Under the pieces are notes generated by a model, which saw nothing but the letters and a program-made list of their open reading frames with translations, was not told the DNA's origin and did not search any database. Positions 9,712 through 63,921 of a stretch of DNA of 64,000 bases are shown here, piece by piece (position 1 is the stretch's first letter; each line of letters opens with the position of its first letter). The stretch covers positions 1,550,001-1,614,000 of the forward strand of contig OZ037766.1 in NCBI GenBank assembly GCA_964035545.1. The letters are read 5' to 3'. The translations under genes were made by a program, and so were the position numbers. The stretch comes from Bugula neritina (Eukaryota > Animalia > Bryozoa).

Positions 9712-10878
9712 ATGAATCGGGAGGTATCGAGTATGATGTTTTCATACATGAACAAAAGGTAGGCTGAATACTATATATCTGTACTATATATTTGTAATGC
9801 ATAGAATACTATATAGTTTTATTAAAAGCAGATCAAAACAATGAGCTTCGTGCATTATTATATATTTCAGCTGCTTGAAAATGTCCCCATATTACCACAT
9901 GTATGATATGATATTTTCAAATGAAGCTATGCCTATATATCGCTCACATATGAGTTATAGCAACTAATAGCTTTTATTATAATAATGCGCTTATATACAA
10001 ACTGTTTTAAACTGTTGATTTATGGAATGTATTTTTAATAAAACTAAGTTTTTTTAGGGATTGACTTGGAATTGATTCAAACTTTTAGTTTTCAAACTTA
10101 TCAGGAAAATGAACTTACTTCTTATATAACGCAAACAATCTCTAACTCTAGGACTTTTAGCATATTATAATAATAATAATCTTAACAACATAATATTATA
10201 TGAGCTGTTTTCATGAGTTGTTTATTTACTAAATCTCAGTCACTATCATGAAGCCTGTGTACCAACTCACCAAAGACGGGCCGTGTACGCAGAGCCCAAC
10301 ACTAAGCCAGTAGCTGTACTAGACTATACCAACAGAACTGATGCCGTGAAAGAAGACATCTTGTGGAGACAATGCGTCAGCAAGGAGGAGAAAGCCGTCA
10401 GCAAGTGGGAGGATGAGTGGGGGTTCCTGGTAGAGTACGACAGCAAGGTATGTATCCATTTCTTATATTATATTATATTATATTATATTGTATTGCGTTA
10501 TATCATGTATTATATTATACTTTATTATATCATTTTATATTATGCTACATCTCATCATATTATATTATATTGTAATATAATATATTATACTATATTATAT
10601 TATATTGTATCATATTATGTCATATTGCATTAAATATAATATAATATATTATATAATATTGTTTTACATTTGAATGCATGCAGGGGAATGCAGTGACACC
10701 TGAACAGCTACCTGAATTCCAAAGTCGGTTTGCCAGTGGCCCCGTCCCTAAGACTGTGGCAGGAGTTTACGGCTCAAGAACTCACTCTACAAACACTCAA
10801 AACATGCTTTCACTCGAGAGAGCTTTAGCTGCTCCAAACAGGAAGAAGAAACTCGACAGTGAAATGGTTTGTTACTAA
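9712..10878 (+). CDS. C2orf50: C2orf50 (CIMIP5)-like ciliary microtubule inner protein; exons 9712-9758, 10240-10447, 10684-10878
   Basis: Phase-compatible canonical splice sites. Protein has D-x-LWR...W...WGFLxxYDxxGN...P-x-x-LP...F...VP...GSR...RKKKL, the conserved pattern I recognise from C2orf50. Confidence 0.75.
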
Positions 10879-18569: not shown

Positions 18570-19200
18570 AAAACCACATAAAACTAGATATGTAGCAAAA
18601 GGATACTGACAAATACAATGAGTTGACTATGATGAAACGTACAGTCCAACCACCAGATTTACATCGATCAGATTGCTGTTACAGAAAGCAGCAAAATAAA
18701 AACAAGAAGATACATCAACGAGATGTTAAAGAGGCGTACCTAAACACGCCAATCAATAAGGAAACCTACCTACAACAGCCTGAAGAGTACAAAGAAACCA
18801 GCAACCAAGGGAAGCTTTCTTGGCGTCCCAACAGATCCATATATATGGCCTCAAACAGAGCAGATGCAATTGGCACCAAACACTTACCACTTTCCTCAAG
18901 GAACAAGGCTTCACACCTGGTGCCGGAGACCCTTGTCTATACTCAAAACAGGACCTTTCAGACCTTGTGCAAAACATTCAAGATAAAACAGAATAACCCT
19001 AACACAGTTTTCACCAACAACCTTGGAGCCATTGCCCTCACTAAGGGACAACCATACTTATAAAAGAGGAGCAAACACATTGACATTAGATTCCACATTG
19101 TCAGAGAGCAAACCACCATAGTATACCAACACATTAGAGGAGCGGAGAACCCTGCCAATGTCATGACTAAGAGCTTGCCTAAAACCAATCACAGAATTGC
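18570..19200 (+). pseudogene. Degenerate, internally deleted Copia reverse transcriptase and RNase H remnant
   Basis: Fragments KTRYVAKGY*Q...VDYDETYSPT, IHQRDVKEAYLNTPINKETYLQQPEEY, SIY-GLKQS-R-W, DPCLY and KRSKHIDIRFHIVRE...ENPANVMTKSL, broken by stops and frameshifts. Confidence 0.9.
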
Positions 19201-22169
19201 CCTGGAGCTACTAGCTATCAAATCACATGCTTGAGGGGGCGTGTTGAGAAACAATCATGCGATCCTATCGCTAATCACATTCATGACAATCACGTGACAA
19301 TATGCTAACTAATTGCTTTACTAGAATCGCTGTATACTTGTTTACCCCTTCTCTTCCGTTCTGTTATACAAAAACCATCGTCATGTTTTTGATTCAAATA
19401 AATATTTTATTACCAAATAATTAAATCAGTCAGTCAGTTTGCTCGATAAGTTAAATCAGCAATCAATATCGTATTTCATAATAAATACTATACACGATGG
19501 CAACACATTCAACATAAAGTTTCTAATAATTCTTTTCTATAGTTTTACAAACTGGTGACGATATTGACATATGTACCAGCTACATGTTTTACCTGCATGT
19601 TTTACCTGCATGTTGTAGAACAAGTTCATTTGTAGTGCAATTAAGGTATTGTCTTCGACTTTTAATTTCTTGCAGCAAAATGCAACCAAACACTGTATTA
19701 ATTGGTATTATAGTATGTAACAAAATACTCTATTAGTATTATATTATGTATAACAGAATATACTATTGCTATTATATATTATACAGCTGGTATTATATGC
19801 TATGTAACACAATAATATGCAGTTGGTATTATGTATTATGTAACAGAATATTATACAGTTGGTATTATTATATTTTTCTGCTAACAGCAATCAAATTTAG
19901 TATAGATTATATGATATGTAGCTATCCATAAACACTAATGAGGAGATAACTCTAACATGTGAATTACATATGAGAATCTGCAGGTAGATGAGGATTGGAA
20001 TGGATCATTGTTGATAGCTTAACAGTCAAATCTCAAATATAACTAAAAATACATGATTTCTAATATAGAAAAACAATGCATGACATGTTTAGAAATTGAA
20101 TACATGAATTATAAGCGTCTTTATTGGTGATTATTAAGGAAACAATATTTCATTTTCAGTGTAAAAATCACTAATTTGTAGAAAATCTATGAAGGCTATT
20201 GAAAAGATCAAAAAGTTTGCTATGCATAAATTTCTCAGGTTTCTGACAGTGTTTGTTTTATTCGAATACCACGCTTTCCTGCTGAGATATTTGGCAGGGA
20301 TTGAAAAATAAACTTTTCAGGTAAAATTGGCCAAAAAGGGTAGATTTTTGTCTATAACTTTGCAAAAAATATTGAAAACTCGAATAAGCAGGTGTTTTGA
20401 GGAACAGGAAGATCTAAAACATGGTTTTTAAATTTTAATTCTAGCACAATTAAGTGAGGTTTTATTTTGCGGGGCTGAATTCTTATAATATACCAATAAT
20501 GTGGCCTCAGCAAGGCAGTGACAGCTAAAAGGTTGCTCTTATTTATCTTGTGTGGACTTGTATTTTGTCAATAAGTAATGGAATTTGGAAAAAACCAACA
20601 TGAAACCCAGAAATGAAATCAAAATGTTTTCAGAAAACAGTACCAGGTGTATAGGAGAGGTTAATGAAAATTTATCACTGAGGTCTACAGGTACTATATC
20701 CACATTTTGGTCAAAAACTTAGCGTTATTGCATGATAATAATTATCAATGCAATGAGGTTTTGCAAACTGTACACCACCATAAGTAACCTTTTATGTTTG
20801 ATTGTATTAATGTCTGGCTCTACATTTAATCATCTTCTAGGTTAACAAATTTGTTCTTTTGGGGTATATTTCCTTGATGTATCTAGTGGAAGCTTATTTT
20901 AAAACCAAGTTAACATACTCTTCTTGGGTGTGGTTTATTGTGTGTAAGGAGCTGTGGTGGTATCTCTTTATGGATTAGACTATAGTACTCTAATAAACTC
21001 CAAATAGGTTTTCAACCACTTTCTGCTTGCCAAAGAGTTATCAGTTCAAATTGCTCTTTACAAGTAACCAACACACATTTTCTGATTTGCAATCTTCCTC
21101 TGTTCTGATCTATTATTCTTTTTCTATGCATGGCAGTGTATTAGTTATTTAAGATTGCATTTGAAGAGCTTTTGTTACCTGCCTCTATCCTTCCATTTTT
21201 TTTGAGATCTTCAGAAATTTTTCGGTACAATTTGGACTTAGTGTCAGAACAAACCTAACTGCAGTTGAGTAAGACTACATTACATTACATTACAGTCAAC
21301 AAGTATGGGACAAGACTGAATATTTACATAGTTTGCAGCAATGCCCAGTCGTCATGTAGCTGGTACGGTATGAAAATAATAGTGAGGTGCACATTTCAAC
21401 ACAGATTTTTTTCAGAAGAATTATAATTCACAATGGCTTTAAATTGCATAAATTTGCATCAGAAGCGCTCTGAGGGCTTTGGCGGCCGGGGCGCTGCCCC
21501 GGACCCCGCCGGCCTGAGAGTATGGTCTAGAATATTTTTGCCACTACATCCCTGATTGCAACTGAAATTGCCATGCAATAAATCACATTTATAATATCGT
21601 TTATATTTGCAAAAAGCAATACATTGTTTTAACTAATGTTAGTCTAGTTCAAGTATGTATGGTAATTGATAGTTTTTACATGGCTGAAATAACCTGCTGC
21701 CGTACTAGCTATCGCTGATCAATTGTTGAAATGTATTTTAAAGTGTAAACATATTGCAATTTGACCAAGATAATCTGGCCAAAAGTGTTGATTTTGTAAG
21801 CAAGAATTAATCAGCATTACGGGAGAACATTTATAACATAGAGTTGTCTTTTCATAACGACTCAAACTTTCACGCAATAGTTTTATAGTATGTACATTAG
21901 TTCGGATGATAGAAAATAGGAGTTGTCTTTTAAATATACTGCTTGGCTCTTTGAGCTCTCAAATTAAACAAATATCATAATTATCTTTTGAAAGCTCAGA
22001 CATCATATTTGTCGCTTAGTAACTCTCGAAGCCTTTCTGTGATGTCACAACATGTGTTTTAAGGCTAATATTGTGTGAAAATATTATATTTTAACTTCTA
22101 ATAGCTCACTTTTCGCACCATTACAATCTTCTTTGACAATCATTGTAGGCATGAAATAGGAGCGCAAGC

Positions 22170-25100
22170 ATGATAGATCATCATAGTCATACTCATAGGG
22201 AGTTAGTAAAAGGAAAAACTATACACGTTTACAGAAATGGAGATTTATTTTTTGACGCCAAATCGATTGTAGTGAATAAAAAGATCGACAGAACTTTCGA
22301 AGCTCTACTGATCAGACTTACAGAAGTTCTTAAACCAGAATTTGGAGCAGTTCGTCATCTTAAGTCTGTAGATGGAGTAACTGAAATCACAAACTTTGAT
22401 CAACTTGAAGCTGGTGCAAGTTACGTTGCATATGGAAAAAAGTTTGTGAACCTTCAGTAAGTCCAAGTGATAATACTAATAGTAATACTAATAGTAATAG
22501 CAATAAATTAAAATATAACTATAAGTTATTAGCTTTAAGTATACTAACCATAATAATGTTTCAATTAATTTTTATTGTATATTTGATATTTAGTTCATAT
22601 TATCATTATAATAAATTTATTTACGTTAGTTTAAAATCTCTATTTGTGATATTCATATTAACTTTAAATTTACCACAAAGATGGCACATTAAATTTGATG
22701 AATAGTCAATAATATTAATTGTTATTAGTTAAATGATTATGAGTAACATTGTTTAACTTTTGTGATTGTCATGATTAGTAGCCAAGAAATTGAGTTAAGC
22801 TTTATAGCTTTGAACTGAATATTAGGTTTTACTAAAAGAAAGGTATAATTGTTTTACATAATAAACAAATGTGTTATTATTATCAGTTTTTTATGGAAAT
22901 GTATTAGGGCTATTAATAAATTTCTTATAGGAATCGTGATCATGGTAACTCTCACTAAAAAATTGAATCTTTTTACTTGTGCATTATTTCAACATTATAA
23001 ATTAAAATTCGTACTAATATTTCTAGAACGAAAAATTATAATAATATGCTCAAGTCATACGATTGATAAGCTTCTAAGTTATAATGTAGTTGTTGTTTTA
23101 TGTTTTTCTTTTAAAATTTAGATACACAGAAATTTCAGCTCGTTTGCATTCACTAGCTCACCCTCCTTTGGTCTCTCCCCGTGAGGTAAGAAATGTAGAT
23201 TTTTAAATTTTGCAATTTTTTAAATGGATATTAAAATATTATTATAATGTAAAATCTTATAAATCATTTGTCTTTGAAACATTTTCAATTTTCAAATAGT
23301 TTAAAACTAATGAATTATTACGAACATAGAAGCAGAAATTTGTAATTTTTCAAATAGTAGTAGCTAGTAAAAATTTGCAGCATGAAAGTTGTCGAACCAC
23401 GAAATACAGCAAACTCAAATTTTAAAGTAAACTTCATTAGTCCTGGTTGAGTAGAAATCCTTATTTCTGTATCTAGCAGGGGAAGTTAACTTAAACATTT
23501 ATTAATTTTACATCAGGGTACTGTCGTAGGACCTGAGGTATGTATGTGATGGCTTTCTTTATTTATGGTTTATACACGCTTCTAGTATTTTCTTTTCCTC
23601 CAATTTCAGCGTTGTTAGGTAACAATGACTACATGACAACTATTTTAGCTTGGTTTTCTTTATGCAGTGTTCACCAACTTTATCTGATACCAAGTTTTTA
23701 AAATATGTATGTCATAGTTTATTACAAGTATCATGTCATAATCATTCATTGCACCCTCTCCATTAAAATAGCATTTTTCTGTTTTCTGGTGAGCTAGAAA
23801 ACTCTACAGCGCATTGAAACAGTACATTGATGCACTCTAATGGAGAATAATTTGAATTGACTTATACAATAAAATACAGTCAATATGAAGTACTTGCACC
23901 TGACCTATCTATGTAGATTTATCTGAGGCAGAAATATATACACCTGCTTGTGTCTCTCAGTGTGACCATAAAAAACTCTGATAACAAACATTGAATATAA
24001 TGAACAATAGTTAGCTTGAGAGCCAACGTGATTTGGAGGTAAAATTATGGGCTGCCACCTAAGAGATTCAGGCCCAACCTTTAGGTTCTTAGTCACATTG
24101 AAGTTCATGTTTCTAGACACATTTTATGCCAATATCCATACATCACATATTTAATGTATGACTATGACTTAATATTCAGCTGTGAACTAGCTGTGGTGTC
24201 TGATGTACGAGATTTTAGTCTGAGAAATAAAAACATTGATTTACACTAAATCCTGTTATACTTTTCTAAACAAGGACTTGATTAATCTTGTTTTCCTTAA
24301 CACTGAGTTAACTTCATTATAAAGATTAGTTACATAATTACAGCTAATGGCATTACTTCTACCTCTGACAATCATAGCAGACAGACTGTGTGCCACCATA
24401 AATCATTTACTGTTTACTTCAGTCAAAGTCTGGTTTGATGAAGTATCTATAATGCTTTCTGAATAGTCAACTAAATTCAATTTTCACTTTTCCAGTGGAT
24501 TATACTGTGTGAACTGAAATGAAACACCGAAACTATATTTTCAGACTATCTTAAATATTTTCTTGTTAAATAGTTATCTCCCTTTTTTATTAACTCAATC
24601 TTTTGGTTGTTGAAGAATCAAGGCTTCCTCTCATCTTCTTTTTTTAGTTACGGAAACTAGTTGTATCGGGAAGAGCAAGGAAAATAGTTCGACATCCTGT
24701 GGTTATTAAGTAAGTATAAGATTGTGAGAAATAACTGGGTTATCTAAATAACCAAATAGAATATTTCAACTTCAACAGGAAAGCAGAAAAAACCCAACAG
24801 CTGTGGTGTATTTTAGTGTGTACGCTAACGGACAGCCCTTCAAATCCGCTAAGAGGGTTCTACTCCAGCCCTGGATACACAAGACGTGGGACAATGTCCT
24901 TGAGCAGATCTCCTCAAAGCTGCCTCACATGAGGGGCGCCATTAGGAGGTGTGTAACTTGTCATTATGTAATATCATTCTGGAACATTCAGCAGCCATTG
25001 TTTTATAATATCAGTAATAGTAACTCCGTACTGTCAGTAGCTGGTGCGCAGTGGCAGTAGCTAGCAAATAGTGTTAGTAGTAACTCTGTACTGTCAGTAG

Positions 25101-32448: not shown

Positions 32449-52941
<20,493 letters not shown>

Positions 52942-55003
52942 ATCTTATTCTTTAACAAACTCACATTTCACATGTTCTACCAATAAATTTCACAAATGGG
53001 AGACTACATCCTAAAACAATGAAATTAACAATTTATTCAAAAATTCAAAATAAAAACAGCAAATAAATGTAAAAATCTTGCAACAAAATTTGCTAGCATA
53101 TCTTTTTAGTTTCAAACATGAAATCATACATTAAACTCAAGTCTGTTTAAAGTTGCTGTCTATATGTGAAGTCTTAATTTGCAGGCTAAAAACTATGCCT
53201 TTTGCCATGCTGGCCACATGATTTTGATAGTTTCTGCATAAAGCACAGGGGCAATTATGACTGAACGTTGTTTATGACATCACCAATAGCCTTGCAGGAA
53301 TTCAAATTTTGCTTACTAGGTCAGCAGATTAACTAGACCACCGTAGCGGTACTGATTATCCTGACGACAATGTGTAGATGTACCAATGTTTAAATTACAT
53401 GGTGAATAAATTGAGTCACCTTTACAATAAACACCATTGTGGGTGTTGCACCGGACCCAATCTTATCCAATCAAATATCAGAGAAGTCATATATATTAAA
53501 CTGAAACTCATTCTTAAACTCACAAAAATCTGTATTTCATTTCAATTCTTTTACAATTGCAATTGAATAAAACCTGAACTGAAACAAAAGACGTCAAATG
53601 TTTTGTTAAAATTAGTTGAAATTAACATTTTGATTTTAAATAATTTCAACTTCTACAAAATTAATAACAATAATGAATTATGAATAAATTAAAATATCAC
53701 AATAATTACAATAGCTATGGCTACAGGCTACAACCTTAACTAAACAAATATTCTTATACTTATAGTTTTATTTCCAAGTTTAACTGTCTGTATAAGTATC
53801 TGTATTAGTATATCACTATAAGCTCAAGTATACTAATAATTTTATTCATAAATATAATCATAATGTCAATATTAATAATAATAAATTCTAATTTACTGAT
53901 TATCATTATTATAATAACCTTGAAGATAATCATTATCCTAATGTTAATAATAATGATAATGTAAATTAAATATTAAAGTTTAAATTAACATAAACACCTA
54001 GGGCTAGCGGGCTAGTAAGTAGTACTAGTACCAGTTAGTAGTACTAATATTAATAATAGTTATACTAAGTCTAATAGATAATAGCATTTATTTTGATCTT
54101 ACACTTGCAGTTGAAGTTCAATTTCACTTTCACTTTGAGTTAGAGTCAAAGAGTGCAAAAAATAACTTCAACTTAAACTAGGTTTCAAAGTTAAAAATAA
54201 AATTAAATGATCTTAAATTTAATAATTGTCATCCTTCATTTTTAATTTTATGGTTAATAGATGATAATTAATTTTAAAGCCGGAAATTTATATCGTTTAA
54301 AAATAGTTAAATTATTTTATTTGTATAATTGTTTTTGGCATGAGATCAAAACGAAAATGGTTTAGGTTATTTTGTTTTAACACCTTTGCTGGATCAGGTG
54401 TTGCACGATCTTTAGCGAAAAGAGGCTCGATACAAAGCAGGAAATGTCAAAGCGAAACCGAAACTTATTTAACGTTTCTAAAGCCACAGACCTATCGACT
54501 TTTACTATATTATATTAGTTAAAATGAGAGGATTGTGATTAATCTCTTCCGCAACCTTGGTCGTGCCAGATTATTGCAGTGTGGTATATTAAGAGTGTTG
54601 ACTTTAAACCATGAAAAATCATTATGTCGCTAATGGTACCGCGAGTTTATATAAGTTATAAAGGAAAAATTTTGCCACTTTTGTGATTTTATTTTTTTTT
54701 TATATTATGTGTCCATTTTTTTTAGTTTTGTTTATTGGTAAAGTTTTTAAACATATTTTCAATACATATAAAATTTTAAAAATAATTAAAACTTAATCAT
54801 GCACGTAAATACAAAGCTATAAAGTTTAAGCTTCGCTGTGATTACAATGTGAATATGAATTGAATAATGCTTGCAATAACCATTTTACACAAAATACGTT
54901 ACAGTTGCTATAAATGTAAGACTAGTAAATTGGATGCAAATAGGCACGGTAATACTATTTAATTTATGCTATTTTTGAAATTTGTAGTAAATATTCGGCA
55001 TGT

Positions 55004-55690
55004 TGCTATAGATGTATTCAAGTATTATTTCATACTTGACATTTTGTATGCTATACCACTACAATATAATATACTACAGATATAGCATCCTGCTTCCCTG
55101 CAACCTTAGTTAGAGCTTAATATTGTTTTGTATTGAATACTTCCATGTATTCTATCTTTTCCCCATTTATAATATATCTTTTCTTCCATACATAGTGTAT
55201 GCCTACTATATAGAATAGCAGTAACATTAAATAGACACACACTTACAAGGTTATACACCATGATACAGGACATACAACTAATTATTGGAGATGGTACAAC
55301 ATTAGCCCTAAAAGTATACTTCCACATATATGATGTTTCGCAACAGGACTTCTAGCCTAAGGATTATAGCACTTCGCTCTTTAGCTATAAGATACTTATC
55401 ACTTTCGTACCCTTACCTTTTATGTTGAGTGACGGAGCTCTGGCTACAAGAAGTAAGCAGTGAGAGAACCTTCTATCTAAACGTGGCAGCTTTGGTACAG
55501 GATTCCAGATCTCTTGTACACTAGAGTCCGTCGTAAGCAGATGTGACTGAAGAGAAGAATAATACCGGTAAGTGTGATACCAACTATCAACGCGTTATAG
55601 TTATACACATGTAGAATATTCTAATTGTATGCATACCCTGTGTTATATTAGGTACTTAGTAGTTGAAAACCCCCAGTACTCAATATAACA
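55004..55690 (+). repeat. 5' LTR (687 bp)
   Basis: Direct repeat of 62040-62726; the ORF track shows the same 73-aa minus-strand ORF in both copies. Confidence 0.97.
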
Positions 55691-55693
55691 TTT

Positions 55694-55708
55694 TGGAGGA
55701 GGCACTGG
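55694..55708 (+). promoter_or_regulatory. Primer-binding site TGGAGGAGGCACTGG (closest to a tRNA-Cys 3' end)
   Basis: TGG starts 3 nt after the LTR end; the first 12 nt differ at one position from TGGAGGGGGCAC, the complement of a typical eukaryotic tRNA-Cys 3' end. The tRNA assignment is tentative. Confidence 0.55.
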
Positions 55709-56808
55709 CTTTTGCCCAAGGTTGCCCTTGTTAAATATTGTGTCCAGCTTTATATTAATAGCTCTTGACACTTGGTTAACCACCCGTGCGCCAGGGGATA
55801 AAATTATATTGATACTTTAAATAGTGTTGATCAGGCCTCATTTGGCTGTTCACTAATATTTTCCTGTAGGTTTTATATTCGCTGAGCTCATATTTTGCTC
55901 GTGGGTAGACCGTAGAAGTGCTAGGCCGCACTGAGAAAATATTAATTGAAGCCAAAAAGGATCAACTTTTACATATTACCCCAAAACAATATACATCCAC
56001 AGACTAATAGTAATAGAGCGAGAATTCCTATATGTTTAATTTTTCTCTGCTGCTTAAAAGGTGAAAACAAGCCAGTTTTAATTTTTTTAGCCTAGAGATA
56101 ATTAATTGTAGAAGTGAATTACCTCCCTTTGCTAATAGGCTAATTTAGTTGTATAATTGGGTGAGCTGCAGATAAGGTTAACACGCTCCTTATTTAGCAG
56201 TTAATAAATTCCAAACAGATTCAGTCTACGACTGTCTGCTGAGGTATAGGCGCTGACAAGTACTATAATTAATAGTCTTGTCCTAAACATAATTTCTTAT
56301 AATTATCTACAATTTACTTTGCAGTGCATTGCCAATCAGAGCATCACTGAATTGTATATTATATATTTACATATTATACGAATAATACATTGCAGTACTA
56401 AGTATTGCAACACCTGCAGTGCAATCAGTGTATTATAGTACAAAGCATTGTCCTATTACGTATTATAGTACCTAAGTACAACAACTGCCTTACCACATAG
56501 TACGAATAATAAACTAATTAATTACTGTGGTTGACTAAATTTAAATTTTAGACTAGGCTTGAATAGCAGAAATAACTGAATAATTTGTAGTGTACAGAGG
56601 TCATAATAAAGGACTTCCACTAACTTAAAGTACTTAGCTGCAAGCCACACCTTGTCATATATACAGAATAGTACATGCACACATATCCTTGAGTAAGAAA
56701 TAGACACATAATTGTACATTAGCACAAAGTATAAACATTAATAACATTGCAAACAAGTACTGCTGAACTCACTTATTAGTTGGAAATTATAAGTCACGCA
56801 CCAACAAT

Positions 56809-59325
56809 ATGAGCACCGGAACCGTGACCACCGCCACAACTACAGTCACCACTAGTGTTAGTACTATTACGACACCAGGTAGTGCCACAAATGTAGCCAC
56901 GGGCTTAGACACTCCTACTCTCTCACAAGATTCGACAAGAGAAGGAGCTCACGCATTGGTTGAGTTGTCCGAAAGACGACTCCCGATGAACCCGCATGAA
57001 ATTGCAAGATTCTACGAGTTAGAATACAAGAAACTTGTAGAGGAGCAGGAAAAGCAAAAGGATGTATGGAGATATGAGCAAGAGCAATGGCGACAGTATC
57101 AACAAACGAAAGAGCATGAACTGGCGGAACAGTTTCAGCGCCTCGAGGTAGAAAGACAAGAGCAAGCAAGGAGACGGTTCGAGATAGAGGAAAGTTTTGA
57201 AATCCAACGGAGAAAGTTCTATGAGGAACAGAGCGCTGTCCAAGAACAACAGCAAAATGAGTTTCTGGAAAGAGAGCATCGGCTCACAATCCAGCAACAA
57301 AAGTTACAACAACAACTTGAAGATTTTCGGAATCTCACCTTGGGTCAAAGATCTACCAATGATGCAAATGTCATGCCGGAACCAACTCCGCCACCTCGAA
57401 CTCGCCTACCTCCACCAGTTACGCCACGGAAAACAAGTAGAAGGCAACTTCACGAACAACCAGCACCTACACCTACAAATACTACCTTGGAATTCACATC
57501 AAGTTATCCCCACATTGCTAATCAACAATCACCAAAACCTCATAACTCACCAATCCAAAGCTTAGCTGAAACACCATCTGAACACAGCATTGGAGTAGCT
57601 GATGCGAGAAAATTTCACAACTCACCTATTATTCTGAGAGAGCCTCCACAGAACATCAAATTTAAAGGAACTCCTGGTTCCAGCTGGGAGTTATTTCTTG
57701 AAAAATGGGAAAAGAACATAAAAAAACTGCAGCTTAGTGATTATCAGATGGCACAAAACCTTTCAGATGCCCTGGAAGGTGGTGCCTATCAGGTTTTCAA
57801 GGCAGTAGTTGCAAAGGAGCCCACGCTAGCGATTAGTTACAAGAGTCTTCGAGAGAGGTTGTGCAAAGAGTTTGTCGACTCAAGCAAATTAGTGTGGAAC
57901 ATAAAGATGGGGAAGAAAAGCGTACTAGAATATTATGGCGAATTTATGGAAGCTGCCAACACCCAATGGCCTGACCTATCCCTTGAACATAAAGATAGCG
58001 TGCTAGTATCTGCTTTTATTACTGGTCTACGACCAGGATTGAAGAGGCACCTCCTCTCTAAAAACCCCACAACTGTAGAAAGTGCTAGGAAACTTGCACT
58101 TAAGCAAGAAAATGTAGAACATCAGATGGGAGATGACACCCAGAAAATAGTGGCAACAGTAAACTCATCTGACTCAGTTCAAAAGCTAGAAAAAGAGGTA
58201 GAATGGTTGAAAACTTTAGTGCACAACCAAGCTAAAGAGCAACGGCAGCCCCAATACCAACAGCACCAACAACAGAGTCAAGGGTTTGGAATGAGAAATG
58301 ACAGAGGTAGAGGTGGTGGATGGAGAGGAACAACAAACCGAGGAAGAGGACGAGGTAGATACTTCAACCAGGGGAAGCCTCAACCCTACTACCAATCTTC
58401 TCCCCGGTACCCTCACCCACCAGCACAACTTCCTTCCTGCCCACCTCAACCACCCTCTCACCAGCAACCACAACGTAATCAGTGCTCTGGTCAACAGAGC
58501 AAAACCAAAGATTACAGTGGGACGCGACACATCAATGCTATTGAGAGCCTGGAGGGTGATGAATTTGCTGAGGCCCTTCTGACTCAGCCTCCTCAAGATG
58601 ACATAGCTGAGGAATCAGTGAATTCAATTCAAACCTCTCCAAATGAATTCATCTCTGACAGGAAACCCAAAAGAAAAAGAAGCAGAGGACGGGGGACTGG
58701 TTTGTCAACAATGCAAACCTACATGTTGGCACTAGTGGCAATGTGTATGCTGATCAGTGTAGCCGCAGCCACTGCACCAGTAAAAGGCACAGCTCTCCTG
58801 GGGCCAGCGTTGGCCAGTCAGACTCTCACCAGCATACTATCTGTGTTAGTGTTGACAGCAGTAGTGAATGCATTGTCTAACACGACTGTTTTTAACACTA
58901 CACAGAAGGCACAGCCGCAGTATGCCAGGTATCCTTTGGTGTGTAGTTCCAGTGAAGTGAGGCGACCATCTATTCATCAATTGAATCATGACTTCCAATG
59001 TGATCCGACTCCAAGACCCAATAGTACTCATGCGCCAACCCCTGTGAAGGCTACGGTTTACAGAAAAAATGTAGTGGAATGGCGTACAGCAGCCTATCAA
59101 TGCACTAAAATGCTGTACACCATCTCCACACAAATATCACTTTTTACGGACGTGAAAACTAAGAAGGAATCTCACCGGTCACTGCCAGTTAGCCGCAGCG
59201 AATGCGAAAATATGGTACTAGAGAAGAGATGCAATGAAGGTGCCCTATCTGGAAGTGATGGTGCATACACTACAAAAAAACAAAGCTGCAGGATTAGCTT
59301 ATGTTTGGTGCTGCAAGTGGCATGA
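56809..59325 (+). CDS. gag: Gag (coiled coil, Ty3/Gypsy-type capsid, RG-rich nucleocapsid-like region) fused in frame to hydrophobic signal/TM segments and the N-terminal part of the envelope glycoprotein
   Basis: Capsid ~57661-58110: FKG...WELFLEKWE...LEGGAYQVF...YKSLRERLCKEF...SVLEYYGEF...FITGLRPGLK...NPTTVESARKLA. Then RGRGGGWRG...RGRGRGR, basic RKPKRKRSRGR, hydrophobic MLALVAMCMLISVAAA and LTSILSVLVLTAVVNA, and a Cys-rich sequence with N-x-T sequons. Confidence 0.88.
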   Translation: MSTGTVTTATTTVTTSVSTITTPGSATNVATGLDTPTLSQDSTREGAHALVELSERRLPMNPHEIARFYELEYKKLVEEQEKQKDVWRYEQEQWRQYQQTKEHELAEQFQRLEVERQEQARRRFEIEESFEIQRRKFYEEQSAVQEQQQNEFLEREHRLTIQQQKLQQQLEDFRNLTLGQRSTNDANVMPEPTPPPRTRLPPPVTPRKTSRRQLHEQPAPTPTNTTLEFTSSYPHIANQQSPKPHNSPIQSLAETPSEHSIGVADARKFHNSPIILREPPQNIKFKGTPGSSWELFLEKWEKNIKKLQLSDYQMAQNLSDALEGGAYQVFKAVVAKEPTLAISYKSLRERLCKEFVDSSKLVWNIKMGKKSVLEYYGEFMEAANTQWPDLSLEHKDSVLVSAFITGLRPGLKRHLLSKNPTTVESARKLALKQENVEHQMGDDTQKIVATVNSSDSVQKLEKEVEWLKTLVHNQAKEQRQPQYQQHQQQSQGFGMRNDRGRGGGWRGTTNRGRGRGRYFNQGKPQPYYQSSPRYPHPPAQLPSCPPQPPSHQQPQRNQCSGQQSKTKDYSGTRHINAIESLEGDEFAEALLTQPPQDDIAEESVNSIQTSPNEFISDRKPKRKRSRGRGTGLSTMQTYMLALVAMCMLISVAAATAPVKGTALLGPALASQTLTSILSVLVLTAVVNALSNTTVFNTTQKAQPQYARYPLVCSSSEVRRPSIHQLNHDFQCDPTPRPNSTHAPTPVKATVYRKNVVEWRTAAYQCTKMLYTISTQISLFTDVKTKKESHRSLPVSRSECENMVLEKRCNEGALSGSDGAYTTKKQSCRISLCLVLQVA

Positions 59326-60823
59326 CTTTGAAGTGAAACAATGCAGTTATATTTCGGCTTCGGTATACAAGACATTTGGGAAAAGTTCTTTTGAAAGCAC
59401 CGCAGGTGACGTTTCCCATTGCAACTCATACTCTGATGGCTACTGCAAACTCAGAGATCAATCTATGCTGATATGGGAAACAGAACGAGAAGCTAATTGT
59501 CCATACGAGGAGTGGTATGAAGTTGAAGGAAGTTTCCTTGATGGCTATTTTGTTAGTGATCAAGAAGACTTGGCTTTAACTTTCCGCAAGAACCCCTTTG
59601 AGAATATTACCACTTGTGACGGCAAGTCAGGCACAATGTCGGACCAAGGTTTGCTTGTTGTTTTTAATACTTCAGACCTGTTCAACACCACTCTAACGCA
59701 ACACGTTGAAAAGGCTCCTGGACTAGAATGGGACCGCAGGAGTCGTTTGAGTCCAGCATATGCTGTCATGGACGCTATAGCTCAGTCCCTAGAAGTACAG
59801 ATTCTCGGAATCGAATCAAAACTGTATTGGACATCTTATCAATATACCTGTAAAAACATAGTTCAAGTCCTCAAAACCGTAGCTCTACTCGCAGAGCAAC
59901 ATGCGACGAGTACAGCCAGATACTTACTAGGGGTAAGCAATATCCGAGCTGAGTCTGGTCCTGGTTTTCTAAAGATTTACCCATGTACGGAAATAAAAAG
60001 CTACAAAATGCTCCCTATGCCAGAGAATAATTGCACCATGTTTATTCCAGTGGAATTGGAACTCAGTGGGGAAACGCACACTGGTTTCATGGATCCGATG
60101 GATAACATTATTCACACACAAAGTGCACAAGCACCGTGCACATCCAAATCAGCAATTGCATTCCGGATGAACGATGAATTGTTTTGGTATAACCAAGATG
60201 GTACCGTAGAAAAGGTTAATCTTGGAGAAGACCTGAGTTTACCTGGAATTTCTCTAGGTGCACACCCTCTTAAAATCCATGAAACAATCTACAGCCGTGC
60301 CCATCACTTAAGTTGGCCTGACCTGTCAGCACACTCTGACTTGAATGAATTGCTAGCTACTTTGTCAAGACAGAAACAAGTTTTAGAAGCAATGGGAATT
60401 CAATCCAACAGACATGTTTCCTTTAAAAACAATGTCATTGAGTCGAAAGAAAACTTGATAGGGAACTCTTGGTTTGCTTTCCTGTTTGGAGGGCATGTGG
60501 CGAGTGCATTCGAATTGTGGACTTTGATATCCAACTGTTTAGTCACCATATTGTCAATTGCATTGCTAGGTAATTTCCTATATAATCGTTGTTGCCAGCG
60601 AAGGAGAAATATTGTAGCAGCTATCGACATTGAGGACACAGAGAACACATCTGACAATGATGTTGAGGCAGGAGAACAGGATGGGTTCCTGGACGCTTCC
60701 GATCAGACTAGCTTCACAGAATTCGTAGATATGGTAGAGGTGGACACTAGACCAACCCCTAGTGCTCCTTCGCCTGCATCTTCAATTCAGCAATATCGCC
60801 CCCTCTATCCGAAACTGCAATGA
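59234..60823 (+). CDS. env: Remainder of the envelope glycoprotein (class III fusion protein, herpes gB/chuvirus G-like), continuing ORF1 across a +1 break at the A7 run 59274-59280
   Basis: C-x2-Y-x2-G-x-C...IW...CPY module; RRSR furin-type site (59735-59746); long helix followed by ATSTARYLLG...AESGPGFLKIYPC and C-x3-P...TGFMDPMDNII...PC, which parallels the gB domain III/IV pattern; C-terminal TM ~60512-60583 followed by CCQRRR. Confidence 0.8.
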   Translation: MKVPYLEVMVHTLQKNKAAGLAYVWCCKWHDFEVKQCSYISASVYKTFGKSSFESTAGDVSHCNSYSDGYCKLRDQSMLIWETEREANCPYEEWYEVEGSFLDGYFVSDQEDLALTFRKNPFENITTCDGKSGTMSDQGLLVVFNTSDLFNTTLTQHVEKAPGLEWDRRSRLSPAYAVMDAIAQSLEVQILGIESKLYWTSYQYTCKNIVQVLKTVALLAEQHATSTARYLLGVSNIRAESGPGFLKIYPCTEIKSYKMLPMPENNCTMFIPVELELSGETHTGFMDPMDNIIHTQSAQAPCTSKSAIAFRMNDELFWYNQDGTVEKVNLGEDLSLPGISLGAHPLKIHETIYSRAHHLSWPDLSAHSDLNELLATLSRQKQVLEAMGIQSNRHVSFKNNVIESKENLIGNSWFAFLFGGHVASAFELWTLISNCLVTILSIALLGNFLYNRCCQRRRNIVAAIDIEDTENTSDNDVEAGEQDGFLDASDQTSFTEFVDMVEVDTRPTPSAPSPASSIQQYRPLYPKLQ

Positions 60824-61330
60824 CTAGAAGCCGACACACCCAGTACTAGTAGCCGCATTGAAATAGTAGCAGGAATAAATGGTAGTCAATGTAGGAGTGC
60901 ATTAATTGATATCAAAATAGCAGGAAAACCGTATCAAGCATTAGCTGATGCCGGGGCTACGGTGACACTGATGCGCTCTGACATTGCTAAAAGATTGAGT
61001 CTACCATTATATTCAGGTACCTTGACTGCAAAAGGGGTTAACAGCTCTAAGCTTCATATAATAGGACGCACGGCCGCTGAGATTACAATTGGATCAAAAA
61101 TGTTTAAGCAGTGTTTTCATGTAGCTGATGATATTGGCCATGAGGTACTGCTTGGAACTGATTTTCTTAGCAAGCTGGGTGATGTCACCTACAATTTTGC
61201 AAAAGGAGAGTTTCGTTTCTCTGGCGAAACTCTACCCATGGGAGAAACCAACGCACTAACTACTTTTAAAATAAGAACTGTGAATGCAGCCATACCACCA
61301 TATTCTCACCCGATTCATTACTTTACATAA
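60824..61330 (+). CDS. pro: Retroviral-type aspartic protease (retropepsin), in frame with env behind a single UGA
   Basis: Open from 60824 with no ATG upstream of the active site: ...ALIDIKIAGKPYQALADAGATVTLM...AKGVN...IIG...FHV...VLLGTDFL. Confidence 0.85.
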   Translation, partial: LEADTPSTSSRIEIVAGINGSQCRSALIDIKIAGKPYQALADAGATVTLMRSDIAKRLSLPLYSGTLTAKGVNSSKLHIIGRTAAEITIGSKMFKQCFHVADDIGHEVLLGTDFLSKLGDVTYNFAKGEFRFSGETLPMGETNALTTFKIRTVNAAIPPYSHPIHYFT

Positions 61331-62027
61331 TCATGCAGATATACCAGATATACTAATATTTACTGCCATATTAATAATCAAGTTTTTCAACGGAACACAG
61401 GAGTTTTCCTGTTGTACACAGGGGGAGTACTTTAACATTTTTTCAGCATTACAGGTTAACATCTTCTACAGTTTTGGCTTCTTATAAAACAAACTTACTA
61501 AAAATTTCAGAAATCAAATTGACTTTTGATTAAAATAAAATTAAGTAAGCTCTGTATTGGGAAAATTGAATCAAATCAAACGGAATTTTTAAATATTCAA
61601 AGTTGGATAAAATGCGGAGTCGATTGTTATCACCACCTCCTGTGACTTATGTTTATAATATTCATAATTAGTGTATTTTTAGTAAATGTTTACTTATAGC
61701 TAAAGTCTTGTTTTTTTATTTTATCAACAGATAAAGTTCATCAAAAAAAAAATAATGAAAATATGGTTACAAAAAAAGGGAACAATGTAAGAAATGAGTG
61801 AAAAAAAAAAAAGATTATGTGACCAGAAATAAAAAAAAAAATACTCACTCTAATCGATGAACTCACTAGTACTAATAGAATACATATATACAACAGCTAG
61901 TATATATAATTTTCAAATTTTACTCATTTTATTGTGAAAGATTTTTCTTCCTTTTTTATTTCGGAGTAGTAATGCTTAATTGTTTATGCTTTCAACAAGC
62001 ATAAGCCACCGGAGGTGTCTTTCTCTA

Positions 62028-62039
62028 AATTGGGGAGGA
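62028..62039 (+). promoter_or_regulatory. Polypurine tract
   Basis: aattggggagga abuts the TG of the 3' LTR. Confidence 0.75.
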
Positions 62040-62726
62040 TGCTATAGATGTATTCAAGTATTATTTCATACTTGACATTTTGTATGCTATACCACTACAA
62101 TATAATATACTACAGATATAGCATCCTGCTTCCCTGCAACCTTAGTTAGAGCTTAATATTGTTTTGTATTGAATACTTCCATGTATTCTATCTTTTCCCC
62201 ATTTATAATATATCTTTTCTTCCATACATAGTGTATGCCTACTATATAGAATAGCAGTAACATTAAATAGACACACACTTACAAGGTTATACACCATGAT
62301 ACAGGACATACAACTAATTATTGGAGATGGTACAACATTAGCCCTAAAAGTATACTTCCACATATATGATGTTTCGCAACAGGACTTCTAGCCTAAGGAT
62401 TATAGCACTTCGCTCTTTAGCTATAAGATACTTATCACTTTCGTACCCTTACCTTTTATGTTGAGTGACGGAGCTCTGGCTACAAGAAGTAAGCAGTGAG
62501 AGAACCTTCTATCTAAACGTGGCAGCTTTGGTACAGGATTCCAGATCTCTTGTACACTAGAGTCCGTCGTAAGCAGATGTGACTGAAGAGAAGAATAATA
62601 CCGGTAAGTGTGATACCAACTATCAACGCGTTATAGTTATACACATGTAGAATATTCTAATTGTATGCATACCCTGTGTTATATTAGGTACTTAGTAGTT
62701 GAAAACCCCCAGTACTCAATATAACA
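62040..62726 (+). repeat. 3' LTR (687 bp)
   Basis: Direct repeat of 55004-55690. Confidence 0.97.
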
Positions 62727-62729
62727 ATG

Positions 62730-63921
<1,192 letters not shown>

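Follow-up and report, generated by a model that had tools for sequence, protein, structure and literature searches.

Retroelements with the gene order GAG-ENV-POL and a gB-type envelope protein have been published for Bryozoa, Nematoda and Platyhelminthes (Chary and Hayashi, PMC13524379). The bryozoan errantiviruses of this kind are described there as multi-copy elements of about 12 kb, and the ten bryozoan elements listed come from three other species. LTR elements that move without a pol of their own are also on record. Non-autonomous Athila elements carry gag and env, lack pol and are moved in trans (PMC2410132); plant TR-GAG elements are devoid of replication enzymes and still insert (PMC4350172); and most new insertions of the cattle D-type ERVK are defective copies complemented in trans (PMC10924933).

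The window (the whole stretch of DNA analysed, 64,000 nucleotides of Bugula neritina) contains an LTR-bounded element at 55004-62726 on the + strand. It is read here, with a probability of roughly 0.85, as a gag-env-protease LTR element that lacks RT, RNase H and integrase at one sharp junction, likely a deletion derivative of a bryozoan GAG-ENV-POL errantivirus and likely integrated recently through the enzymes of a full-length relative. LTRs, primer-binding site, polypurine tract and target duplication are all four present, and the features are as follows.

55000..55003, + strand: left target-site duplication ATGT, from the sequence.
55004..55690, + strand: 5′ LTR, 687 bp, TG...CA, from its identity to the 3′ LTR and run X1 contigs arriving from other flanks.
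55694..55711, + strand: probable primer-binding site, beginning TGG, 3 nt past the LTR.
55712..56808, + strand: AT-rich, non-coding 5′ leader, with no Pfam match in three frames and no pol signal.
56809..58725, + strand: gag section of the gag-env frame, which opens with ATG at 56809 and includes a capsid-like domain at about 57770-58035.
58726..58866, + strand: two hydrophobic segments joining gag and env, from a hydropathy scan.
58867..60823, + strand: class III (gB-type) env, with ectodomain, membrane anchor at about 60524-60580 and cytoplasmic tail.
60818..60827, + strand: env stop in the readthrough-type context CAA TGA CTAG, in frame with protease, from the sequence.
60824..61305, + strand: aspartic protease and start of the protease-RT linker, the sole part of pol retained, from Pfam and P0013 homology.
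61297..61305, + strand: deletion junction, a 9-nt microhomology common to both sides, where run contigs leave or enter.
61306..62029, + strand: 3′ AT-rich stretch, most likely the rest of the parent's 3′ non-coding region.
62030..62039, + strand: polypurine tract GGGGAGGA, directly preceding the 3′ LTR.
62040..62726, + strand: 3′ LTR, an exact match to the 5′ LTR.
62727..62730, + strand: right target-site duplication ATGT, with a TA microsatellite next.

Exact alignment of the two LTRs gives 0 differences over 687 bp, and ATGT is found on both sides of the element, as the preliminary description had reported. This bounds LTR divergence at less than about 0.44%, to be read in the knowledge that identical LTRs in an assembly can arise from polishing. 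LTR ends in run X1 join other flanks, and five contigs of that run enter the 5′ LTR out of such flanks. In the related locus L010 a TGG-starting site likewise lies directly behind the LTR. No tRNA genes were found in the window.

The element sits between a high-copy repeat and a TA microsatellite. Its left flank (54558-55003) is the very high-copy repeat, with an X1 depth of about 130,000 compared with 91 just to the left, and at 54904-54918, 98 nt upstream of the LTR left boundary, lies a 15-nt near copy (1 mismatch) of the boundary sequence, possibly by chance. Exons with PI3-kinase, PIK accessory and PX domains at 34891-52639 on the minus strand suggest a class II PI3-kinase gene; should the open frames at 50295-52639 be the first exons of that gene, gene and element would stand head to head, with the element about 2.4 kb upstream. 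Many minisatellite arrays with 12-42 nt units occur at 17290-51512, mostly among the kinase exons. The window also contains a copia-type RT fragment (RVT_2, E 2e-6) at 18596-19060, a doublecortin-domain exon at 22155-22457 and an LLC1-domain exon at 10217-10630.

The coding span (56809-61330, about 4.5 kb) comprises gag, a class III env and protease, the last being the start of pol, and is colinear with P0013, a 2,602-aa gag-env-pol protein. The span is interrupted twice, by a frameshift in env (near 59270-59290) and by an in-frame TGA that parts env from protease, in agreement with the almost intact coding sequence first described. The gag part matches Pfam Retrotrans_gag (E 1.9e-5) and is 53% identical to P0001 across 211 aa. 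The hydrophobic segments that follow are likely an internal signal sequence; by eye two are also present in P0001, other relatives seemingly having one. The env matches Monjiviricetes_fusion (PF24664, E 3e-6) at 26 bits, just below the cut-off of 27, and the best Foldseek matches of its predicted structure are all herpesvirus gB (E 5e-9), on a low-confidence model (pLDDT 53, TM about 0.2-0.3). Both comparisons place it among the class III, gB-type proteins. At the env break, contigs of all four runs compared differ from the window at full depth, so the break either belongs to this copy only or results from misassembly. The protease (Pfam gag-asp_proteas, E 8e-13) has the active-site motif D-A-G at 60947-60955 instead of D-S/T-G, as do P0013, P0019 and P0023.

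Gene order, gB-type env and LTRs are those of the bryozoan GAG-ENV-POL errantiviruses (Ty3/gypsy, Bryozoa_C2b, PMC13524379), and by eye the env closely resembles, cysteines included, the Cryptosula rows Cpal_errantivirus_4, 5 and 6 (PMC13524379, supplement 3). The Ty3/gypsy pol order PR-RT-RH-IN, present in P0019, P0023 and P0013, is not found in the window's element, which is a defective derivative and not an intact member of the errantivirus group. With that qualification it likely belongs to the published bryozoan elements.

A search with the env among longer proteins gave 16 matches at 34-52% identity. Most are Gag-Env fusions of 1,001-1,374 aa; P0013 is a single Gag-Env-PR-RT-RH-IN protein. 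At the nucleotide level, pol lies behind env in 13 of 14 related loci, the 14th ending too early, and in the seven loci that have an unbroken env and extend as far as the pol stop, env is followed by a complete pol frame of 1,289-1,312 codons. In 12 of the 14 (L001-L011 and L013), belonging to five families 44-64% alike, env ends in CAA TGA C with pol next in frame; in the two remaining loci env is broken or cut, and P0013 has no stop between env and pol. The UGACUA(G) context is a described leaky stop, a type II readthrough signal (PMC13517186). Among the contexts of alphaviruses with type II readthrough (UGA CUA, UGA CGG; PMC13517186), UGA CUA recurs in the window and in two related families; a further family has CAA UGA CGC, near the VEEV context CAA UGA CGG, and two more have UGA CAA, which falls outside the classic hexamers. 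Unlike in the alphaviruses described there (PMC13517186), the stop here separates env from pol in a retroelement. In the 107 nt behind the env stop no unusually stable stimulatory RNA structure was found (z -1.5 to +1.2). Given the conserved CAA TGA C with pol in frame, the leaky stop and the stopless P0013, Pol is likely produced by readthrough, as an extension that prolongs the Env cytoplasmic tail of a Gag-Env membrane polyprotein.

The Env tail of the window contains PSAP (60758-60769) and YPKL (60806-60817). Counted over the window and 14 of the 16 matches (truncated P0010 and fused P0013 were excluded), YPxL occurs in 13 of 15 tails, P[ST]AP in 8 of 15 and PPxY in 7 of 15, compared with 0 in 5,850 aa of ectodomain, a control unmatched in proline content and drawn, like the tails, from related sequences. 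These match retroviral late-domain motifs, and budding may be driven by Env rather than by Gag. In the literature we found no report of env-stop readthrough or Env-tail late domains in such elements; Sacco et al. 2022, on a nematode, may cover pol expression. The main text of PMC13524379 makes no mention of non-autonomous elements, readthrough, frameshifting, late domains or ESCRT.

In another family, P0026 and P0167 have protease and linker fused in frame to the C-terminal tail of Pol, without RT, RNase H or integrase, and four contigs from ENA and Logan carry this deletion. P0026 came from a protease search, an ascertainment that favours protease-retaining deletions.

No signal of RT, RNase H or integrase was found in the window's element. 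Pfam on six frames of the 3′ stretch returns no pol family (the one hit is DUF5677, E 0.04), and no other pol of the same family was found elsewhere in the window. A profile built from eight close Pol proteins scores at best -3.7 bits against the stretch, within the range of shuffled sequence (mean -4.9, 95th percentile -2.3, maximum 0.1; 195 of 200 shuffles scored); the protease, as a control, scores 175 bits. The absence of these enzymes noted in the preliminary description is thus confirmed. The same description had seen in FKVG and KVHQ possible remnants of a decayed integrase, for which it proposed an integrase profile check. Both motifs are there, but they lie in different frames, 138 nt apart, whereas in five of the eight close Pol proteins their counterparts share one frame, 54 codons apart, with KL(I/V)KRW between. 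Loose forms of the two motifs appear in 15.5% and 23.8% of shuffles, and both together in 4%; the profile score is at chance level, and tblastx of the stretch with the related loci gives no match at E<1. The 3′ stretch as a decayed integrase is ruled out by Pfam, by the Pol profile with its shuffles and by tblastx.

The stretch is better accounted for as non-coding sequence. Its AT-rich, stop-riddled character and length of about 700 bp were correctly described: 61331-62039 is 709 bp of 27.5% GC, compared with 44% in the coding part, and across 61306-62039 the longest stop-free run in any frame is at most 59 codons. The protease frame comes to its end within the first 25 nt of the stretch (stop at 61328-61330). 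Full-length L010 has 1,660 nt of non-coding sequence of 35% GC ahead of its own polypurine tract, and in other runs the stretch occurs at a depth similar to that of the coding part. From the non-coding length of L010 and the run contigs, it is most likely native non-coding sequence. A blastn comparison of the stretch, LTR and leader with the 14 related loci found nothing, and no second source of the stretch was found within the window.

The boundary between protease linker and 3′ stretch is abrupt. The element is partly present in 20 runs from six studies, none of them on record as an RNA run, so the set says nothing about expression; contigs of six runs were compared with the window. Contigs of X3 and X8 diverge from the window at 61305 and continue in other letters, and variant contigs in X13 and X8 diverge at 61286 and 61289. 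From the other side, contigs in three runs (X1, X13 and X8) come out of other letters and join the 3′ stretch at 61297. No contig bridging the junction is present among the contigs listed. Two gaps were not counted as evidence: X13 has no cover at 61518-61776, and the 3′ stretch is missing from X3.

The letters beyond 61305 in the diverging contigs are inferred to be pol from their position, P0013 and P0021. Homology to P0013 by tblastn runs from 59300 to 61306 and ends inside the protease-RT linker. P0021, which carries the NCBI label Bugula neritina, is 84-88% identical to the env tail and protease of the window and continues past protease into linker and RT-proximal sequence that aligns to the Pol of relatives at 42-62%, which makes a bryozoan host of that group likely; its internal gaps, possibly introns called by the gene predictor, were not scored as deletions. 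A full Pol protein of the same family was not found, the closest being 58%, 53% and 50%. The search for further proteins with the junction-derived end, over 83 candidates, gave three matches, none of them aligned across more than 73% of the query, and no relative was found in viral contigs. Measured from LTR start to LTR start, L010 is 10,457 nt long and the window's element 7,036. With breakpoints that overlap by 9 nt and a difference of 3.4 kb from L010, the loss probably amounted to about 3.4 kb or more in one step. A sharp deletion relative to near-identical copies, as at 61297-61305, is half of what the preliminary description had set against its own reading of a replicating pol-less lineage; the other half is that no further pol-less copy exists, and here one run probably carries the same junction, on indirect evidence.

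In X1, kilobase-long contigs inside the element stand at about 6-7 times flank depth and the LTR about three times higher again; contig depth is no copy number, and the family is read as small or low-copy and recently active. The window copy differs from six long X1 contigs at 52 of 5,108 bases (about 1.0%), mostly by transitions. With 0 differences in 687 bp of LTR, these internal differences must have accumulated before the insertion (otherwise P about 1e-6). Among the rows listed (40 of 677 and 40 of 83), 15 of 27 coding differences fall on third positions (P 0.014), an excess that shows constraint on the family, not on pol-less copies. Several differences private to the window are single bases in short runs, the env break included, so some assembly error is likely.

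X1 also provides a signal at the junction itself. Its protease contig stops exactly at 61305 with no loose letters, and the bin 61259-61295 holds an extra 870 depth-bases that cannot sit at 61289-61290. By depth arithmetic, this hints at a junction-bearing contig with a depth of about 174 of 415; just upstream, the copy behind it would be 3 bases longer or shorter than the window's. No extra depth of this kind is present in X13, and no junction appears among the contigs listed for X8 and X3. Rare variants are lost from run contigs, and the window may itself stem from X1.

We give just short of even odds to the pol-less form being an established non-autonomous subfamily, in which the deletion is older and intact gag-env copies have spread in trans to several loci. 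The X1 contig end with its extra depth, an internal divergence older than the insertion, the parallel in-frame loss of RT, RNase H and integrase in the family of P0026 and P0167, and the Athila precedent (PMC2410132) all point this way. The X1 signal is, however, arithmetic and not a listed contig, and the depth could come from this same locus; X13, X8 and X3 offer no counterpart; the window's env carries a frameshift, provided that the break is genuine; P0026 came out of a protease search; and the third-position excess describes the family.

Somewhat less than an even chance, or at best about the same, is given to a single event that left a one-off, dead-end copy, the deletion having occurred in its own round of reverse transcription or later by microhomology-mediated repair in the chromosome. 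A sharp 9-nt microhomology junction against near-identical copies fits such an event, identical LTRs and a clean target duplication would arise equally, pol stands behind env in nearly all related loci, and no junction signal is seen in X13, X8 or X3 among the contigs listed. A one-off is harder to square with X1, whose contigs fork at exactly this base in what would be a slightly different copy, and the silence of the other runs weighs little since metagenome and run contigs collapse minority forms.

It is improbable that pol is missing through misassembly, by a collapse or a wrong join in a multi-copy repeat. The family is multi-copy and the window shows private single-base differences in short runs, the env break among them, but a natural microhomology of 9 nt lies at the junction, the target duplication is undamaged, transition-rich variants are peculiar to the copy, and the X1 contig breaks at the same base. 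An old lineage of structural genes with a decayed integrase remnant and a pol-only partner, the bipartite system suggested in the preliminary description, is very improbable even with gag, env and protease largely intact and LTRs identical, for close Pol relatives score no better than chance on the 3′ stretch, sequence runs on beyond protease in copies of 96-99% identity and so leaves no time for decay, and the relatives are complete single gag-env-pol elements, with P0021 and same-family contigs likewise continuing past protease. In searches directed at other targets, no pol-only element came to light. The other part of that description stands: a copy without pol and with 0 of 687 LTR differences is non-autonomous and recent, and any integration of it would have needed the RT and integrase of a pol-bearing element.

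For the deletion derivative favoured here, the following origin is proposed. About 3.4 kb would have been lost by a jump between two 9-nt repeats, from the protease-RT linker to the 3′ non-coding region, most simply as a template switch during reverse transcription. Template switching at a short repeat would account for such a junction most simply; chromosomal microhomology repair is the alternative. Because the short RNA retained LTRs, primer site and polypurine tract, it could be packaged, copied and integrated by the Pol of full-length copies. The family would make one Gag-Env membrane polyprotein, and Pol through occasional readthrough of the env stop, so that the short element would yield only Gag-Env and Gag-Env-protease. 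It is unlikely, though worth setting out, that the whole of a broader scheme holds, in which Pol is a readthrough extension of an Env tail with budding motifs, and replicating derivatives with pol cut directly after protease arise repeatedly, spread in trans with a self-processing Gag-Env coat and act as structural partners or defective-interfering competitors of full-length elements.

As a single deleted copy the element is ordinary, internal deletions and trans-mobilised defective LTR elements being well documented. Were the junction to turn up at several loci together with an intact gag-env, it would be an animal counterpart of the pol-less Athila elements, whose paper is reportedly by Marco and Marin, with a viral fusogen. 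The side findings are possibly worth more: the stop CAA-UGA-C, conserved across five families where env gives way to pol, and the late-domain-like motifs of Env tails suggest how such a gene order sets the Pol-to-Gag ratio, packages Pol and buds. With identical LTRs indicating a recently active family, these questions are testable in a living bryozoan.

Compared with known systems, the window copy differs from the errantiviruses of PMC13524379 in being without RT, RNase H and integrase, a lack that it shares with Athila (PMC2410132). The pol-less Athila families are multi-copy and long-lived, with purifying selection demonstrated (PMC2410132), whereas the form seen here is represented by one copy; the window's element, in turn, retains protease, and a class III fusogen serves as its env, in a position between gag and pol. 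TR-GAG elements have gag only (PMC4350172) and the D-type ERVK has no intact frame (PMC10924933), in contrast to the gag, env and protease of the window copy. By analogy, the element would work as Athila, TR-GAG and defective ERVK do, and pol-less elements moved in trans are in this sense already known.
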